This document shows, one piece after another, positions 27,242 through 35,411 of a DNA stretch of 64,000 bases (the stretch's first letter is position 1; each line of letters starts with the position of its first letter). The position numbers and the translations under genes are program-made. Under the pieces are notes generated by a model. The model was given only the letters and a program-made list of their open reading frames with translations, was not told the origin of the DNA and made no database searches. The DNA is from Eubacteriales bacterium. GTDB taxonomy: Bacteria > Bacillota > Clostridia > Oscillospirales > CAG-272. The stretch covers positions 6,747 through 70,746 of the forward strand of contig JAZONX010000039.1 of assembly GCA_045654725.1 (NCBI GenBank), given 5' to 3'.

Positions 27242-27660
27242 ATATAATGCGCTTTGTCGTGCCCAAAAGCTTGGTTGAATACGTAACCGTGGATAGCACG
27301 ATACGTCAGGCTTTTGAGAAAATGCGTTTCCATAGATACGTTGCAATTCCCGTTATTGACGGAGAAGGTCGCTACGTTGGAACGCTTCGTAATGATGACA
27401 TTTTCGAATACTTCCTGCAGGTGGGCAGCTTCGACACCCACAACGCAGAGAGGGATAACGTTGTTGATATAATTGATAAAAAACGCTCTACACCTTTGTA
27501 TCACGATGCATCGATGGATGAGCTTATCGAGCGTGTCTGCGAGCATAATTTTGTTCCCGTTGTGGACGACAGAGGATGCTTTGTTGGAATAATTTTGCGA
27601 AAAGACATACTCAATTTTCTATTCAAAAAATATAAAAATGACATAAAGGGGGGGAATTGA
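27238..27660 (+). CDS. CBS-domain pair protein
   Basis: ATGA overlap with the coaW stop. Two CBS-like units (HRYVAIPVIDGEGRYVGTL; HNFVPVVDDRGCFVGIIL). Confidence 0.8.
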   Translation: MNIMRFVVPKSLVEYVTVDSTIRQAFEKMRFHRYVAIPVIDGEGRYVGTLRNDDIFEYFLQVGSFDTHNAERDNVVDIIDKKRSTPLYHDASMDELIERVCEHNFVPVVDDRGCFVGIILRKDILNFLFKKYKNDIKGGN

Positions 27661-30600
27661 TGGCAGACAAAGAAAAAAACATGCCGATACATGATCCCGA
27701 CAATCATGAAAATGAAATACTGAACCATCAGCCGTCTTCAACGGAAGAACTTCCCGAAGCGGATGCAGGTGCGTCGGTTGTAAACAACCCCGAAGAATCG
27801 GAGGTTACATCCAACGAACCTAAGTTGCCCGTTCAGGAAGCAGAGGTTGTAAACGAGCCTGCTGAGGAGCAGATCGAGCCCACCGAAGAAGTAGTTGGTT
27901 CCGAGGAGGTTGAGTCACCCGCGGAGGAAACTCCCGAGGTTGAATCTTCCGAAGAGGCAGCTGCTACGGAGGAGGTATCCGAGCCCGAGGCGATTGAGGA
28001 GGCGGAGCCTGTTTCGGAGGAAGAAGTTCCGGAAGCAGAGCCTGCTTCAGAGGAAGAAATCCCCGAAGAAGAGACTACCGAAGAGCCGCTTGTCGAGAGC
28101 GACGATGAGGTTGCTGAAGAACCGCTTGCCGAGAGCAATGAGGAAGCTCCTATCGATGGGGATGAACAACCCGAGGGCGAGTTCACCGAGAGCGATTGGA
28201 ACGAGGAAGACGAGCTCGAAGATGACACCGATTCAGAGGATGAAGACGACTCGTTTGACGAGAATCTTACCATTGAAATTGACGCTGACGGAATCGTAAC
28301 CACCAATGGTGTTGCCGAGGATGATGACTCCGAGAACTTCGTTAATGACGAAGAAGAGAAGGAGATCGATCCCGAGGATCTCGTGATTTACGATGAGGTT
28401 ATAAAGGCTATCAAATCAGAGGGTGAGCGCCTGGTTGCAAAGGAAGAAAGTCTTAAACTCTATGCGAAGCATAGCAAGGACGCAATTAAGAACTTTGAGG
28501 CGGCTCTTAAGGTTGGTCAGCATCTGCTTGAAAGCAACCGTGACGAGAAGGAAACTCCTTCTATTTTGGCCGGTATCATCAAGATCTGCGCGCAGATCCT
28601 TGAAATCAAGTGCAACAACCTCGAGAACTACGTAAGAGTTAAGGCTTATGAGTACATCAAGCCTGCCCGCAAGGAGCTCAGCTATGAGATCGAGAGATAC
28701 AACGATTACCTGATTACATATTCTTCTTTAACCGGTGAGCAGCTGACGAGATTGTCCGCGCTCCTTCCCGAGAAGATTGCTTCAGGAAAATCTATTGCTG
28801 TGATCCCCGTTCTCTCTTACAGAGAGAGTTACGTTCAGGTCTCCGAGGATGACGAGCTTACAAGAGAGGCTGCAGCAACCCTCACCTTCATAGACCCCGT
28901 GCTCAATGCCGATGCGCTTATGGGAGAGGTTGATCCTCCTCGTACAGTGGGTGGAACTCGCCGTTACATGAGAAAGGCGAAAAAGGCCACCAAGGCACTC
29001 GGTAATGAATGTTCAAGAATAAGCAAGCTTCTCTCCCAGTCCAAGTCAGCCCGTAAGAGATTCGAAGACGAGCTCAGGGCACTTGAGGCGAGAACACCTC
29101 TTGCACAGCGTGCAACAGACGAGTACAAGAACAAGGTGTTCAAGATCGGAGTTAAGTATGGAAAGCAGCTCTCCGGCATTAAGACGCTGAAGACCAGAAA
29201 CGCCTTTGTGAGAAACAGAGTGCGCCTGATGATCAACCGTCTTGTTATCGAGAGAGAAAAGCTTGTCATCGCATACGATTGTTTGCGTGAGGCTTGTCGT
29301 GCAGGAAACAATGGTCAGAAGAGAATAGCGAGAGATTACCTGACAAAGGCGATCTTCTCCTACAATAAGTGCGCCGAGCTTTGCAGTAAGGCGGCGGGAG
29401 CGAACTTTGAGGTAATATCTCCCTTTGTTGTAGATCAGATCTACGCAGGAAAGGAAGCTTCCTTCCCAAGAATTGCTTATAAGCGCGAGCTTGTTGAGAC
29501 GGTTGGTAACACCTCCCGTTCGATTAGCATGGTGCTTCGCAATGATGTTCTTCCCGACGAACAGGCTTACGCTGAAACCTCGCAGAGAATTGTCGATAAG
29601 CATGGTAACACGGTTAACACCGCCGCACTTTCGGATGAATCGGCGATGGAGGACAGAGCATCTGCGATTGCGAAGGTAATGATTGATGCCCTTAAGGACT
29701 CGGCGGATACAGTTCTAAATGTTGATGATCTCGAGCGCTTCTCAGTTAAGGTTAACAGAGCACTCAAGTACTTCAAGAGAGCTCGCCGCAGAACCGAGAA
29801 GGCGATGGCGCGTGCCTTTGATGAAAACGGCGTTATCACCGCCTTGGTTGAAAACCTTCGCGTGATTGCCAACATAATCGAGGTAAGGCGAATCAGCATT
29901 GCTGCCGCGACCAGAATTAAGCGCAACGACATTGCGAGAAGCTACAGCAGAGCACTTTACAAAAACATTGAGCTTTATAACGGAAGAGCTATTGACTATA
30001 TGTCGATAGTTGGCGAGCAGTTCTCCCGTATCAGCATTACTCCCGTAAGAGATCTTGCTAACGGAGCAGATAAGCTTAAAGTTCCTGTTATAACATATAA
30101 AGATAATTACATAGAAGTATTTCCTAAAGATCCTCTTAAGGATTCTGTTTACGAAAAGCCCAGACTGTGGCGCTCGGGAGTTTACACGCCTCTCCTTATG
30201 AAGCACTACAGACTTACGGAAAACCGCGCTATCGAAACAACGGTTGTTAACTCGCCCTTCGTATTTGACGTTATGACCGATGATATGCCGGCTGTTTCCT
30301 GGTGGCACCCCATAGGAATTTGGCAGCACCTGATGGTATGGGCGCAGCCGATAGTTGCTTGGTGGCACAGAGTACTGACTAACGTCGAAATCTGGTTCGT
30401 AGATGAGTCGCTTGTATTCTCGAAGAGCGGACTTAAGGGCAGGGAAAGACGAAATCAAAGAAGAAAACGCAGATACGAAAGCAAGATTCGACGTTTCAAC
30501 GCCGAGCATACTGCAGCGATACTTAGACTTGAAACGGTTGTTCACGAGACCGACCGTCACACCCTTGAGTATCAGAAGAAGATCTGCAAGATTAACGAAA

Positions 30601-33266
30601 AATACAGCCGTAAGATCTATCGTTTGAAGCTTCGCTGGATGCGTGAGTGCCCCGGTAGAAACGAGGCAAGATTGATGCTTGAGCGTCTCGTTCTTGAAAG
30701 AGAGAGACTTGCCGGTATCAACAAGGTTATCCTCAAGTACAGAAACTACGGCAGAATCACCTTTACTCGCAATATTCTTGTTAAATATAAGAAGAAATTC
30801 ATTGAAGCAATAACCGCGCACAACAACACCGCCGAGAAGCTTTCTGAACTTATTGGCGTTAAGTTGTCGCAGGTATCGACCTCGGTTGCAGAAGAGATCA
30901 TAAGATATGGTAATATGATCAAGTTCCCCGAGATCGTATGCTGCAGAGAGGTTATTGAAACCATCGATGGCAAGAATAGAACCGTTGGCGACAGATGGCA
31001 CGGATACGGTCTTTACACCGGAACCTCCGACTCCGCTTCGTCTAATGCGAATGCACCTGTTATGTCTGTTGGCGCTATGGGTTACGCGACTGATATGGGC
31101 GTTCCTTTCCTTAAGAGCGACACTAACGGCATGACAATGATCGGTATGACTCCCGGCGGAGTTCCTCTCATTGGATTTAACTCCACAGGCGAGACTTCCA
31201 TACCCTTCACCGGTACACCTATGATGCTCTCCGGCTCGGATATCTCCGTGGTACTTGACGCCGGCAGAGAAGGTCAGGATACGATGATCCTTGGCGCAGC
31301 CGATGCGACCGATCCTTACTCCGGCCTCAATCAGCGTGGTGTTGATGCAAGATATACAGACGACCTTGAAGAAGATGCAAAGGATCTCCACTCGGGTTGC
31401 GAGGTCGAGACTCCCCTTGATCTTCAGTCGAAGATGATAGAAGAAAGATTTACCAGAGCACTCCGCGCAAGAGCAATGACGTCGATTGACAACGTCAGAA
31501 ACTGGTGGAAGCTCGTTGGTAGCGAAATCAACGTTTGGATTATGAGAAAACTTCTCATAAGACCTCGCGGATTCCTCCAGATCCTTCTTCCTCCGAGAGA
31601 TTTCTATATTGAAAACGTAAACACAAAGGTTAGCGTTCAGGATGTAATCTCTCTTGAGAGAATTTCGACGGTTGGCGGTATCATCGACATAGAGTGCAAG
31701 AGACTCTATTCGGCTACTAAGACCGGAGTTAGACGTTCGCAGAGAAAGTTCAGCGCATGGCTCCATGAGGACATTGATCTTTACAACCAGCTTGTAAAGA
31801 CCTACAACAAGAATCATCCTCGCCACATGCACATCGAGCTTCTTTCCTTCAACATCCCGGATACGATCAGATTCAGACGAGAGGATCTTCCTCCCGCGCC
31901 TCCCGTTTTCAGCATGCGCAACAGAGTTAAGCTTCAAGAGGACGCTACGCCAATCTTGACTAAGGATCTGTTGGAAAGCCTTGTTGAATATGCCAAGAAG
32001 GCAACGTTTAGACACAAAGGTCTGATAGGAATAATTTGGGCTAAGCTTGTTACAGTTCCTCTTCTTAATCTCGAGATGCGTCTCGGATTACGCGGCAAAG
32101 CTCTTAAGAGAGTTAAGCGTATGATTGGTAAGAGATCTAACAGAGCTTATGCTTACCGTCAGGAAAACGAAGCAAGACATTACCGAATCAGATACGAAAA
32201 GGCTCGTTCAATGAAGCGCTATAACAGACGTACTCTGCGCGCTATCGGACTTGCGAACGATCCTATCAAGTATCAGGAAAAGGTACACAAGGTTCTTCGC
32301 AGACACCTGACTCAGATCTTCCGAATCGACTACAATATGCGTATACGCCAGCTCATCTACAGAGCGATGAGAGTTCAAAAAGAACTCTACTGGATTGTTA
32401 CCGCGGCACTTGCGGCGGTTACGGTTATCGTATCGTTAACACCCGTAGATATGAGAGCGTTGCAGACGCTTGTATTTGTCGGTGTCGTTTGGGCAGCATT
32501 GCCTATCATCCTCGCATTGCTCAGACTTGTTTACTCGATTGTTCTGTTGGTAGTAAGTATCGTGCTTCTGCTTACACGAAACATCTGGCTTATCAAGTAT
32601 GGTGCAAGAGACGTTGAGCGAAACCGCTATGGCGCGATTCTCGACTGCTTCGTAACAGAGCAGTATAGATTGCTCGTGGCTTGTGAAAGAGTTCATCAGA
32701 AGCCCAGAAGCCATAAGGCAAGAAAGATTCTTATTGCAGCGGTTAATGATTTCAACAAGCGTTCGACCGTTTATTCCGAAATTCTCAGAATTCCGATTAA
32801 GCAGATTGAAATTACAGGGCTCCTCGAGAAGCTTACAACCGAAGGCTCTCACCGTCTTGTTGAACTTCAGAACTTCGTATACGTAAGAGAGCTTGTCGAG
32901 CGCGTTGACAGACGTCAGAGAGGTAAGACCCTCACAGACAGAGAGTACGCCACACTTTCAGGTGAGATTAACCAGGTTATCAATCTCATCAACCTCAGAA
33001 GCAGCGAGAGTGATCCCGCCGTTCAGTTCCTTAGAACAAAGATGGAGGATCTTGCTAACCGCATCCGCAACAGAGATATTAAGCTCACTCAGAATGAGAG
33101 ATTTGAGCTTAAGAGAGATCTCATTGAAGGCGCGATGAATCTTCAGCTTGAGGCAGGCGAATTCGAAATATTTGCAAAGAACGTCATAACGATCGTAGAT
33201 CACATCGGCGGTAAGGATAGCCGCAGAATTATTGGTGTTCTTGCATCGGATGATATGATCATCTAA
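27660..33266 (+). CDS. Giant (1,868 aa) uncharacterised repeat-containing membrane protein
   Basis: The ATG overlaps the CBS-gene TGA (TGATG) and is preceded by a G-rich SD. The ORF is uninterrupted. It has an acidic E/P-rich N-terminal ~220 aa, six copies of a ~95-aa module, a Trp-rich segment and three hydrophobic helices near residue ~1580-1650. No catalytic motif recognised. Confidence 0.8.
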   Translation: MADKEKNMPIHDPDNHENEILNHQPSSTEELPEADAGASVVNNPEESEVTSNEPKLPVQEAEVVNEPAEEQIEPTEEVVGSEEVESPAEETPEVESSEEAAATEEVSEPEAIEEAEPVSEEEVPEAEPASEEEIPEEETTEEPLVESDDEVAEEPLAESNEEAPIDGDEQPEGEFTESDWNEEDELEDDTDSEDEDDSFDENLTIEIDADGIVTTNGVAEDDDSENFVNDEEEKEIDPEDLVIYDEVIKAIKSEGERLVAKEESLKLYAKHSKDAIKNFEAALKVGQHLLESNRDEKETPSILAGIIKICAQILEIKCNNLENYVRVKAYEYIKPARKELSYEIERYNDYLITYSSLTGEQLTRLSALLPEKIASGKSIAVIPVLSYRESYVQVSEDDELTREAAATLTFIDPVLNADALMGEVDPPRTVGGTRRYMRKAKKATKALGNECSRISKLLSQSKSARKRFEDELRALEARTPLAQRATDEYKNKVFKIGVKYGKQLSGIKTLKTRNAFVRNRVRLMINRLVIEREKLVIAYDCLREACRAGNNGQKRIARDYLTKAIFSYNKCAELCSKAAGANFEVISPFVVDQIYAGKEASFPRIAYKRELVETVGNTSRSISMVLRNDVLPDEQAYAETSQRIVDKHGNTVNTAALSDESAMEDRASAIAKVMIDALKDSADTVLNVDDLERFSVKVNRALKYFKRARRRTEKAMARAFDENGVITALVENLRVIANIIEVRRISIAAATRIKRNDIARSYSRALYKNIELYNGRAIDYMSIVGEQFSRISITPVRDLANGADKLKVPVITYKDNYIEVFPKDPLKDSVYEKPRLWRSGVYTPLLMKHYRLTENRAIETTVVNSPFVFDVMTDDMPAVSWWHPIGIWQHLMVWAQPIVAWWHRVLTNVEIWFVDESLVFSKSGLKGRERRNQRRKRRYESKIRRFNAEHTAAILRLETVVHETDRHTLEYQKKICKINEKYSRKIYRLKLRWMRECPGRNEARLMLERLVLERERLAGINKVILKYRNYGRITFTRNILVKYKKKFIEAITAHNNTAEKLSELIGVKLSQVSTSVAEEIIRYGNMIKFPEIVCCREVIETIDGKNRTVGDRWHGYGLYTGTSDSASSNANAPVMSVGAMGYATDMGVPFLKSDTNGMTMIGMTPGGVPLIGFNSTGETSIPFTGTPMMLSGSDISVVLDAGREGQDTMILGAADATDPYSGLNQRGVDARYTDDLEEDAKDLHSGCEVETPLDLQSKMIEERFTRALRARAMTSIDNVRNWWKLVGSEINVWIMRKLLIRPRGFLQILLPPRDFYIENVNTKVSVQDVISLERISTVGGIIDIECKRLYSATKTGVRRSQRKFSAWLHEDIDLYNQLVKTYNKNHPRHMHIELLSFNIPDTIRFRREDLPPAPPVFSMRNRVKLQEDATPILTKDLLESLVEYAKKATFRHKGLIGIIWAKLVTVPLLNLEMRLGLRGKALKRVKRMIGKRSNRAYAYRQENEARHYRIRYEKARSMKRYNRRTLRAIGLANDPIKYQEKVHKVLRRHLTQIFRIDYNMRIRQLIYRAMRVQKELYWIVTAALAAVTVIVSLTPVDMRALQTLVFVGVVWAALPIILALLRLVYSIVLLVVSIVLLLTRNIWLIKYGARDVERNRYGAILDCFVTEQYRLLVACERVHQKPRSHKARKILIAAVNDFNKRSTVYSEILRIPIKQIEITGLLEKLTTEGSHRLVELQNFVYVRELVERVDRRQRGKTLTDREYATLSGEINQVINLINLRSSESDPAVQFLRTKMEDLANRIRNRDIKLTQNERFELKRDLIEGAMNLQLEAGEFEIFAKNVITIVDHIGGKDSRRIIGVLASDDMII

Positions 33267-33316
33267 ACTAATTGGTTTTAAGTAAATTAAATAAAAAACA
33301 AAAAAATAAATTTGAA

Positions 33317-33333
33317 GGGGGCAGGAGGCCCCC
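33317..33333 (+). promoter_or_regulatory. GC hairpin immediately 5' of the SD of the 522-aa gene
   Basis: GGGGGC-AGGAG-GCCCCC, directly followed by SD GGAAGGAG and then ATG 33349. Confidence 0.4.
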
Positions 33334-33348
33334 GGAAGGAGAATTACA

Positions 33349-34917
33349 ATGAGTAAAGTACAGCAGACCAGAGTAGAACTTCTTGTTGAAAGCATCGCTG
33401 TGGAGAAGCAGATTCTTATCGAAATCTGTGACGATCTTGCAGCTCACCGCGACACCGGTAACAAGAAGGCAGCTAAGGAGGCAAAGAAGAACCTCAACGC
33501 ACAGATCAAGAGATACAACAGCCTTGTATCCGATTACAACAAGGTATCTGGCGAGAAGGTTGCAGGCGTTTCCTATGATCTTCCCGAGGAGATCCTTGCA
33601 GGAAGCAACAACTACGGCATCGCTACAGTTGGCACTCCCGTAGCATCCACCGCAAACGCATACAATGCGAACATCAGAATTCTTGACCAGAAAGAGCTCA
33701 AGAAGTACCTCAACAAGAGCGACAAGGCACTTGACAACGTTAAGACCAGACTTGAAGCTACTTGCAAGCAGAAGGACGAGGCAACCGGTTACAACAAGGT
33801 TCTCCTCATCATCAACTGCCTCACATATCAGAGATATGTAATCGAGAGACTCGCTGAGAATCTCCACGTTTGCAACAAGCTCTCTGACAAGAGAGTTAAG
33901 TCCATCAAGAAGGCTCTTGCAGAGGCTATCAAGGGCTACAACAAGTTCGTTGACGAGTACGAGGCTCTTACCAGAAGCCGTCTTACCCGTGCATCCGAGT
34001 CTATTCCCGAGGATATTCTCGCAGGTAAGCCCTATTCTCCCATTCCCGCAATCTCTTACACCGCTAACGATGGCACCGCTAGAAACAGCGACGCTGACGT
34101 AGCAGCAGTTGCAGCAGTTGCAGTAGCAGACCTTGAGGGCGCAAGAGCTAAGAAGAAGCACGCTAAGAAGAACAAGGAAGTTGTTAGAAAGTCCGCACTT
34201 GAGGAGAAGGTTGTAGAGCAGGCTAACAAGGATATCGCAGTTATCGCAAAGCACTACGACTTCAGAATTAGCATGATCGAGAGCGAGAAGGATATGACCG
34301 CTTACAGATTCGGTTATAACACCTTCGACACCAAGAAGCTCAAGAAGGCTACTAACGAGAAGATCAAGAAGGTTCAGAAGGCTAACAAGGAAGCTCTCAA
34401 GTATGAGGAGAAGGATAACGCACGTTACTACGCAGTTATCACCAACGATCCTGCAACTATGAAGGCTAAGCGTCGTGCTAATAGAGTTAAGATCGCATCC
34501 CTTCGTACCCAGATGATGACCCTTCTTAACAAGAGAGATGAGCTTAACAGCAAGCTTCTCTCCATCTACAACGGCTCTGAGGTTACTCTTGACGGCGTAA
34601 GCATCAACCAGAAGTGGCGTCAGGTTAAGTCCGATGCAGCTGAGAAGTATGTAAACGGCAACAAGAAGCTCGCTAAGAAGATCGCTCGTCTTCCTGCATC
34701 CAGCGGTGAAAAGCAGAGACTCTTCGGCATTATGAACAACAGCGTAGATGCATCCTCTACTCTTGCACTTACCAAGTATCGCCTTAAGACCAAGGAATAC
34801 AGAAATGGTGAAGAGAAGAAGGCTCTTCGTAAGGACGTTAAGCACTTTGAGAAGGTTCTTAAGCAGAACAGCAAGGACATCAAGTGGGTTATCAAGAAGA
34901 TTAAGAAGCGCGCTTGA
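33349..34917 (+). CDS. Lys/Ala/Glu-rich 522-aa paralogue of the giant protein's repeat module
   Basis: Strong SD upstream. Contains two clear copies of the same module (…IKRYNSLVSDYNKVSGEKVAGVSYDLPEEILAG…; …IKGYNKFVDEYEALTRSRLTRASESIPEDILAG…). Ends at TGA 34915-34917. Confidence 0.8.
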   Translation: MSKVQQTRVELLVESIAVEKQILIEICDDLAAHRDTGNKKAAKEAKKNLNAQIKRYNSLVSDYNKVSGEKVAGVSYDLPEEILAGSNNYGIATVGTPVASTANAYNANIRILDQKELKKYLNKSDKALDNVKTRLEATCKQKDEATGYNKVLLIINCLTYQRYVIERLAENLHVCNKLSDKRVKSIKKALAEAIKGYNKFVDEYEALTRSRLTRASESIPEDILAGKPYSPIPAISYTANDGTARNSDADVAAVAAVAVADLEGARAKKKHAKKNKEVVRKSALEEKVVEQANKDIAVIAKHYDFRISMIESEKDMTAYRFGYNTFDTKKLKKATNEKIKKVQKANKEALKYEEKDNARYYAVITNDPATMKAKRRANRVKIASLRTQMMTLLNKRDELNSKLLSIYNGSEVTLDGVSINQKWRQVKSDAAEKYVNGNKKLAKKIARLPASSGEKQRLFGIMNNSVDASSTLALTKYRLKTKEYRNGEEKKALRKDVKHFEKVLKQNSKDIKWVIKKIKKRA

Positions 34918-35067
34918 AGGTTACGTAACACGTTCTGGTGGGTGGCACTTTATCTGCTACTGCTCCTAGGCGGAGCCGGACTCGCTTTGCTGTATTTTGC
35001 AGCAAGTAGCGCAGAGCTTACAGCTCTAATCAATGAATTTATTAATAATTACGGAGGATTAATATAA
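34918..35067 (+). other. 49-codon open extension in frame with the 522-aa ORF beyond its TGA; encodes a TM helix
   Basis: Translation: RLRNTFWWVALYLLLLLGGAGLALLYFAASSAELTALINEFINNYGGLI-stop. Its TAA (35065-35067) overlaps the ATG of the next gene (TAATG). No convincing independent SD/start. Confidence 0.5.
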
Positions 35068-35276
35068 TGGCTAAGAAGAGAAAGTCCGCAGGCATTGCAC
35101 AGACTGAGGCAATCAAGACTCGTGCAGGCATGGCTGAAAAGCTTGAAAAGGAAAGACTTGAACTCAAGAAAGAAATGGAAGCAATCATGAAGAAGTATGC
35201 TAAGGCAACCGGTCAGAGAAAGCTCGGTCAGCGTAAGCATAAGGTTGGTAAGGCTCCCAACGACTACAGAGCATAA
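35067..35276 (+). CDS. Small (69 aa) highly basic helical protein
   Basis: GGAGG SD 8 nt upstream. Sequence: MAKKRKSAGIAQTEAIKTR...KLGQRKHKVGKAPNDYRA. No recognisable family. Confidence 0.6.
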   Translation: MAKKRKSAGIAQTEAIKTRAGMAEKLEKERLELKKEMEAIMKKYAKATGQRKLGQRKHKVGKAPNDYRA

Positions 35277-35309: not shown

Positions 35310-35338
35310 TTGCATTTTCTCAAATGTTGTGATATAAT
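35310..35338 (+). promoter_or_regulatory. Promoter of the rimP-nusA-infB operon
   Basis: TTGCAT, 17 nt, then TATAAT with TGA (extended -10). Confidence 0.55.
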
Positions 35339-35361
35339 ACATATAGTTTAATAGTATTTAT

Positions 35362-35411
35362 GGGGCTGTCGCGAAAGTGACAGCCCCTTCACAATAGTTT
35401 TTTTATTGTGA
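35362..35411 (+). promoter_or_regulatory. Two tandem leader hairpins (candidate attenuator) upstream of rimP
   Basis: GGGGCTGTC-GCGAAAGT-GACAGCCCC (35362-35387), then TCACAATA-GTTTTTT-TATTGTGA (35389-35411), between the promoter and the rimP SD. Confidence 0.45.

Follow-up and report, generated by a model that had tools for sequence, protein, structure and literature searches.

We analysed a stretch of 64,000 nucleotides (the window) from an Eubacteriales bacterium of the CAG-272 lineage (assembly GCA_045654725.1, contig JAZONX010000039.1, positions 6,747 to 70,746 of the forward strand), in which a 522-codon gene ends in a TGA that is followed, in the same frame, by 49 open codons for a predicted membrane segment. 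Comparison with relatives revealed that a TGA, an A directly after it (position +4) and an in-frame tail of 34–60 codons encoding a transmembrane (TM) helix occur together in 18/18 TGA-bearing orthologues with 53–100% protein identity. The best reading of this comparative pattern, which we regard as moderately probable, is functional readthrough of the UGA by tRNA-Trp. The source genome (G000), which belongs to a genus of uncultured Clostridia from gut or rumen, is a metagenome-assembled genome (MAG) of 1.57 Mb, 82% complete and in 46 contigs, and the window lies on its contig C39.

An in-frame TGA followed by an open extension

According to the list of open reading frames (ORFs) and their translations, the 522-codon ORF starts at ATG 33349 on the + strand and terminates at TGA 34915-34917. 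Past the TGA, 49 sense codons continue in the same frame (34918-35064, product RLRNTFWWVALYLLLLLGGAGLALLYFAASSAELTALINEFINNYGGLI) up to a TAA at 35065-35067, whose final A is also the A of the ATG (35067-35069) of a gene for a 69-aa protein. An earlier note on this DNA had described the in-frame TGA and the open 49-codon extension coding for a TM segment, and both the coordinates and the translation bear this out. The features concerned are as follows.

33349..34914, + strand: main ORF of 522 codons, coding for the putative soluble isoform, an all-helical protein rich in Lys whose family is uncharacterised (ORF list, translation)
34915..34920, + strand: TGA-AGG, conserved and putatively leaky stop context (UGA with +4 A; 18/18 TGA-bearing orthologues)
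34918..35064, + strand: 49-codon in-frame extension, predicted to form a TM helix that is preceded by a basic/polar flank (RLRNT) and followed by a short extracytoplasmic end (orthologue comparison)
34933..35004, + strand: hydrophobic core FWWVALYLLLLLGGAGLALLYFAA, predicted single TM helix (Kyte-Doolittle, best 19-residue window 2.25)
34942..34944, + strand: GTG, first canonical in-frame start of the tail, unconserved (alignment)
35053..35057, + strand: GGAGG, Shine-Dalgarno sequence (SD) of the 69-aa gene (invariant GGAGGA block, 17 species)
35065..35067, + strand: TAA ending the extension and overlapping the next ATG (TAATG), in this genome alone (orthologue comparison)

Taken alone, an open extension of such length is not rare. 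Among 85 high-confidence genes of this genome that end in TGA, six have at least 49 open codons downstream, and in at least two of these six the open stretch is clearly just the downstream gene, which happens to share the frame. Because the openness of 49 codons is not remarkable by itself, the case rests on the comparison with relatives. The same comparison removed one argument of the earlier note, which had taken the TAATG overlap as a sign of translational coupling. Only in G000 does the tail overlap the next ATG and contain the SD, and in the 11 other TGA-bearing genomes of the genus the tail stop lies 9–29 nt before the ATG, so that the overlap is not conserved; the GGAGG itself sits within a GGAGGA block that is invariant in the 17-species alignment.

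Conservation of the TGA and the tail

Orthologues with 66–100% identity were compared from 17 genomes of the genus. In 12/17 the match continues through one in-frame TGA (TGAAGG in 11 genomes and TGAAAG in one) into an in-frame tail of 41–50 codons. Six further orthologues from metagenomes (L080 and L082-L086), with identities of 53–67%, also carry TGA-A followed by an in-frame TM tail of 34–60 codons. The base after the TGA is not the default of the genome: among high-confidence genes, T follows TGA in 56% of cases and A in 25%, so the invariant +4 A at this locus stands apart from general usage. The tails of the 12 genus genomes share the consensus R-x-D-x-T-F-W-W-[IV]-[SA]-L-Y-L-[IL]-L-L...G-x-G...[VI]-D-[LI]-S.

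The stop is conserved over a still wider range. About 100 protein clusters with 53–86% identity terminate at the same position (514–540 aa), and none of the members of this clade above 53% identity has a sense codon there. The lack of a sense codon in all of these clusters suggests that no mutation removing the stop, and thereby anchoring all of the protein, has been fixed. When the orthologues are aligned, the position is thus a conserved TGA in 18 sequences, and a sense codon was found only in more distant homologues.

The tail as coding sequence

Several features of the tail point to evolution as translated sequence. In the 12 genus tails (~520 codons), no in-frame stop was found, while the two other frames contain 43 and 34 stops. 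Length differences consist of whole codons throughout the 12 genus and six metagenome tails. By the method of Nei and Gojobori (NG86), the tail has a pN of 0.36, a pS of 0.61 and a median dN/dS of 0.38, the corresponding values for the main ORF being 0.14, 0.42 and 0.24. Differences among the genus tails amount to 0.44, 0.27 and 0.55 at the first, second and third codon positions, with position 2 the most conserved. The hydrophobic character is also kept, with the best 19-residue Kyte-Doolittle window ranging from 2.25 to 3.24 over 18 tails. The extended protein would have a single predicted TM helix at most about 50 residues from its C-terminus and a hydrophilic, helical N-terminus, in line with a tail-anchored protein that has no N-terminal signal and whose body would stay in the cytoplasm.

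No start codon conserved in position or kind, and no SD before one, was found in the alignment of the 12 genus tails. In the window, the canonical in-frame starts of the tail are GTG 34942 and then a TTG at tail codon 24. The earlier note had judged the GTG not to be a credible start, and we agree: it is preceded only by an abutting GGTGG with no properly spaced SD, and the aligned codon in relatives is ATA, ATT or GTA. Three species (G226, G108 and G043) have a tail without any ATG, GTG or TTG.

Ancestral continuous form and loss of the tail

In distant homologues with 33–41% identity (P0103, P0105-P0108, G068, G170, G003 and G007), the frame runs without interruption into a C-terminal TM tail. 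The continuous proteins comprise 623 aa in G068, 650 aa in G170 and 590–662 aa in P0103 and P0105-P0108; in G003 and G007, the match covers the C-terminal end of a longer open frame (at least 903 and at least 1679 aa, respectively). In distant relatives, the homologous domain forms the C-terminal part of a single frame of 1500–3800 aa with a continuous TM tail. A gene for a small basic protein comes next in G003, G007, G068 and G170, with rimP beyond it in G003 and G170. The residue opposite the stop is A, K, I or S, and this variation indicates that the stop falls in a linker and not at a conserved residue. Because the tail is continuous in the distant homologues, it is ancestral and belongs to one protein with the main body. 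The suggestion of the earlier note that the gene is normally 571 codons long is thus right for these distant homologues, where the tail is continuous, and does not apply otherwise.

The remaining five of the 17 genus orthologues (G062, G098, G113, G125 and G083) end in TAA, and none of them has an intact tail. A deletion has left a shortened, non-homologous spacer in G062, G098, G113 and G125. In G083, TAA-TAG is followed by a decayed yet recognisable remnant with a 12-nt deletion, without the WW motif and with a best hydropathy window of 0.45; this remnant without a helix shows what neutral decay does on this time scale. In a quick maximum-likelihood tree, TGA occupies all basal branches and TAA is nested within, in a clade of four species (SH-aLRT 98) and in G083, which falls in a polytomy. 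The locus therefore offers a natural series, from a continuous ORF, through UGA-A with a tail across a deep clade, to TAA with the tail lost.

The tRNA-Trp of the genus

The sole tRNA-Trp that ARAGORN detected in the source genome (contig C43:16190-16265) has the anticodon CCA and a C27·U43 mismatch on top of the anticodon stem, which leaves a 4-bp stem with a 7-nt loop; A9 and G24 are unchanged. It thus agrees with the 'Blastocrithidia-like' variant in the unpaired 27:43, the 7-nt loop, the CCA anticodon and the lack of A9C and G24A. Fourteen genomes of the genus carry this tRNA with 100% sequence identity, among them TAA species and G155, a genome with a continuous homologue. The same C27·U43 mismatch was found in the tRNA-Trp of G170 and G068, both with the continuous gene, and the canonical C27:G43 in the more distant G185 and G080 of the same genus.

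In an E. coli reporter, over-expression of a Blastocrithidia-like tRNA-Trp raised UGA readthrough ~2.5-fold, genomes that have this tRNA-Trp variant alone tend toward fewer UGA stops, and the role of the variant at native levels in bacteria with the standard code was stated to be unknown (Fakih et al. 2026; PMC13092985). The context found here is also one known for misreading. In E. coli, tRNA-Trp is especially apt to misread UGA when A follows at +4, and it misreads UGA in B. subtilis as well (PMC5289835); the same paper cites near-cognate decoding of UGA by tRNA-Trp in both species, with +4 A favoured (Engelberg-Kulka 1981). The leakiest stop in E. coli is TGA, mostly read as Trp (PMC11126739).

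Two side observations concern the same machinery. The prfB gene of the source genome, which encodes release factor 2 (RF2; G000 contig C5:942-2066), is a single continuous ORF without the CTTTGAC frameshift site, and this is apparently so in five relatives too, so that RF2 synthesis in the genus would not be autoregulated through the efficiency of UGA termination. ARAGORN also reported a tRNA-Phe with the anticodon AAA beside two tRNA-Phe(GAA) in the source genome; this anticodon is unusual, and the prediction may be a mis-call or a pseudogene.

Readthrough and the alternatives

On the reading that we favour, most ribosomes would stop at UGA 34915-34917 through RF2 and release the soluble, helical 522-aa protein. 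In a minority of cases, the near-cognate tRNA-Trp(CCA) would decode the UGA and translation would run on for 49 codons, giving a product of 572 aa with a basic flank and one TM helix, anchored at its C-terminus. In this way, part of the protein pool would regain the ancestral topology. We infer that readthrough occurs, that Trp is inserted at position 523, that the unusual tRNA-Trp (4-bp stem, C27·U43) makes UGA-A leaky enough, and that selection acts on the ratio between the soluble and the anchored form. That no reversion to sense was found in ~100 clusters, together with the loss of the tail wherever the stop is TAA, suggests that partial anchoring is what selection keeps. Programmed readthrough that yields soluble and tail-anchored isoforms had been one of the options in the earlier note, and it is the one that the comparative evidence favours.

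A number of observations weigh against this reading. The codons of the tail are non-preferred (score -0.18, against 0.61 for the main ORF); such poor usage fits rare translation and also weak or no translation. Just one or two independent events underlie the association of TAA with tail loss, so the correlation is suggestive and not statistical. No conserved RNA fold was found 3' of the UGA (alifold -0.14 kcal/mol, 0 compensatory pairs), and the single-sequence fold there has a z-score of 0.15; any stimulation of readthrough would thus have to come from the local context alone. The prfB gene is intact and codes for a full-length RF2 with the SPF and GGQ motifs. The 4-bp tRNA-Trp is also present in species with the continuous gene and in TAA species. 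The variant is older than the TGA and not limited to TGA species, and would be at most a permissive background, not the specific determinant. Finally, no second gene with a TGA and an extension was found in G000 with a crude ORF and codon model, which leaves room for others. Candidates for such a gene on contigs C18, C10 and C26 were rejected as antisense junk ORFs.

The conserved tail could also be explained without readthrough. It might be a separate single-pass membrane micro-protein of ~40 aa, made by reinitiation or from a non-canonical start, and in frame with the main ORF only because a nonsense mutation caused gene fission. A split from a continuous ancestor agrees with this, purifying selection on the tail is equally compatible with it, and in G128, G077 and L082 an ATG stands at tail codon 2, where a gene caller predicts a 54-aa ORF. 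However, no start is conserved, no SD precedes one, and the tails of three species lack canonical starts altogether. A separate gene would moreover tolerate TAA or TAG and changes of frame at the junction, yet both TGA-A and the frame are kept in 18/18, and no orthologue with TAA retains the tail. We consider a separate micro-protein unlikely. An efficient stop followed by an untranslated tail, either a slowly decaying remnant or a sequence constrained as nucleic acid by the spacing or regulation of the 69-aa gene, would account for the poor codon usage, for a dN/dS above that of the main ORF (0.38 vs 0.24) and for the complete loss of the tail in some species. It would not be expected to leave 0 in-frame stops over ~520 codons of the 12 genus tails against 34–43 in the other frames, nor whole-codon indels, a three-base periodicity and a TM-grade helix in 18/18, and the G083 remnant, at comparable divergence after its TAA-TAG, has already lost the helix. 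An untranslated tail is decidedly unlikely in our view.

Specific recoding of the UGA, as selenocysteine or through a lineage-wide code change to Trp or Gly, would agree with a conserved in-frame UGA, but we give it very little probability. ARAGORN found neither a tRNA-Sec (selC) nor a tRNA with a UCA anticodon, selA, selB and selD not having been searched for. Matches to RF01852 stayed below the cut-off in every TGA-bearing genome, and these sub-threshold matches are ordinary tRNAs, because they are also present in control genomes that lack Sec. The SECIS-like fold (selenocysteine insertion sequence) that the earlier note had considered just 3' of the TGA was not seen in alifold or single-sequence folding, and Rfam gave no match there. 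Opposite the UGA, continuous homologues carry A, K, I or S and never Cys, RF2 is kept, and TGA terminates 14–19% of genes. The recoded UGA is thereby refuted. The remaining options of the earlier note, a sequencing error or a recent nonsense mutation, fared no better. An assembly error or a recent mutation confined to one strain might be suspected in a MAG of this completeness and contig number, but a TGA occupies this very codon in 17 further, independent assemblies with protein identities as low as 53%, the TGA and the tail are conserved in 18 orthologues, and ~100 protein clusters terminate at that position; the probability of either is close to nil.

Functional readthrough by tRNA-Trp is thus retained as the best reading. 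A more specific form of it is that competition between the 4-bp tRNA-Trp and RF2 at UGA-A is exploited to set the ratio of soluble to tail-anchored forms of an abundant, cytoskeleton-like helical protein. This we put forward tentatively, as possible rather than probable.

Protein family and genomic context

The gene lies in the order type-II-like pantothenate kinase, CBS protein, 1869-aa protein, 522-aa protein, 69-aa basic protein and rimP-nusA-ylxR-L7Ae-infB. Its two immediate neighbours are as follows.

27657..33266, + strand: upstream giant protein of 1869 aa, a putative paralogue with internal TM segments, ended by TAA (weak paralogy, E 3.3e-7)
35067..35276, + strand: conserved 69-aa basic protein with the C-terminus KVGKAPNDY, between the helical protein and rimP (alignment, ORF list)

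The 1869-aa protein is helical with TM segments and is a weak paralogue of the 522-aa protein. No match to the 522-aa, 69-aa or 1869-aa protein was found in Pfam, NCBIfam or the PDB sequences. An AlphaFold2 model of the 522-aa protein with its tail, built from 38 homologues, is all-helical (pLDDT 73.7, pTM 0.37), with a single predicted helix (487-553) that passes through position 523 into the TM segment; Foldseek found no match to this model in the PDB at E<0.4. The codon-usage score of the main ORF is at the 97.8th percentile of the genome, which suggests that the 522-aa protein is abundant. The 69-aa gene has a dN/dS of ~0.2.

Homologues are confined to the genus, since 0/16 genomes from the other families of the order gave a match; within the genus, 35/213 genomes matched at E<=1e-40. 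The helical family ranges from ~520 aa up to open frames of more than 3700 aa (loci L002, L003, L037-L047 and the window), and its repeats end in a motif like YN.LV.EY..LTG..LT.AS..IP.DI..G..Y..IP.ISY. The gene for a basic protein of ~70 aa follows that of the helical protein, and rimP comes after it, at the loci whose flanks were read.

Further elements were observed around these genes. A hairpin (GGGGGC-AGGAG-GCCCCC, window 33317-33333) lies immediately 5' of the SD of the 522-aa gene (GGAAGGAG, 33334-33341). Its stem shows compensatory changes between species (GGGAGC/GCTCCC, GGGGAC/GTCCCC and GGGGGT/ACCCCC), and no T-run comes after it. It could act as a 5' stabiliser or a processing site, or be what is left of a terminator. 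Antisense ORFs of 525 aa (33268-34845, - strand) and 757 aa (29742-32015, - strand) lie opposite the genes for the helical proteins; judged by their translations, both seem to reflect the composition of strongly codon-biased genes and not to be genes themselves, and similar ones elsewhere in the genome distort a naive ORF census. Between the 69-aa gene and rimP, a nearly invariant block (window 35310-35410) is kept in ~15 species. It contains TTGCAT, a 17-nt spacer with an extended -10 TG, and TATAAT (35333-35338), followed downstream by a perfect hairpin, GGGGCTGTCGC-GAAA-GTGACAGCCCC (35362-35387), and by a second small hairpin with a T-run. The rimP-nusA-infB operon probably has its promoter and an attenuator-like leader in this block, for which no matching family was found in Rfam.

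Comparison with known systems and implications

Viruses and eukaryotes offer well-established examples of programmed stop-codon readthrough. Very few conserved and apparently selected cases are known to us from bacterial cellular genes. In the RNA phage Q-beta, readthrough of the coat gene into A1 depends on a UGA that is read by the tRNA-Trp of the host. By analogy, the gene described here, which codes for a probably abundant protein, would end in a leaky UGA, with presumed decoding by tRNA-Trp, a minor C-terminally extended isoform and no need for dedicated machinery. Unlike in Q-beta, the gene is chromosomal, in an anaerobe of Gram-positive type, and the extension would be a membrane anchor of ~45 aa, where that of Q-beta is a domain of ~200 aa. 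A further analogy is dnaX (tau/gamma), in which recoding near the 3' end sets a fixed ratio of short to long product, as would be the case here; in dnaX this takes a -1 frameshift, which involves a slippery site and a hairpin, whereas no such elements were found at this UGA. Bacterial selenoprotein genes likewise have a conserved in-frame UGA, but no SECIS, tRNA-Sec or Cys homologues were found in our case.

The UGA-A context of the 18/18 orthologues is that of the reports on misreading by tRNA-Trp. Those reports concern incidental or reporter readthrough, whereas here the product itself appears to be under selection. The tRNA-Trp of the source genome resembles that of Blastocrithidia in C27·U43, the 7-nt loop and the unchanged A9 and G24; in Blastocrithidia and Ca. 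Zinderia, however, UGA is fully reassigned, while the source genome has retained RF2 and uses UGA as an ordinary stop. The peroxisomal extension of MDH1 and LDHB is a eukaryotic case of functional readthrough that adds a targeting signal (PMC5133446). Our case would be analogous in that some of the molecules receive a short C-terminal element for localisation through a conserved, leaky UGA, so that one gene serves two locations. MDH1 and LDHB depend on the eukaryotic termination machinery and a peroxisomal targeting signal (PTS1), whereas here a bacterial gene would add a predicted TM helix.

For annotation, the finding means that gene callers cut the protein short, or call the tail as an ORF of its own, in ~100 clusters. 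The locus also supplies a native target sequence for the question of what the 4-bp tRNA-Trp does in bacteria with the standard code. If readthrough does take place as proposed, it would be a rare instance of programmed readthrough in a bacterial cellular gene, with a balance between soluble and anchored protein that might change with growth state, and it would give the Blastocrithidia-like tRNA variant its first physiological role outside reassigned codes.

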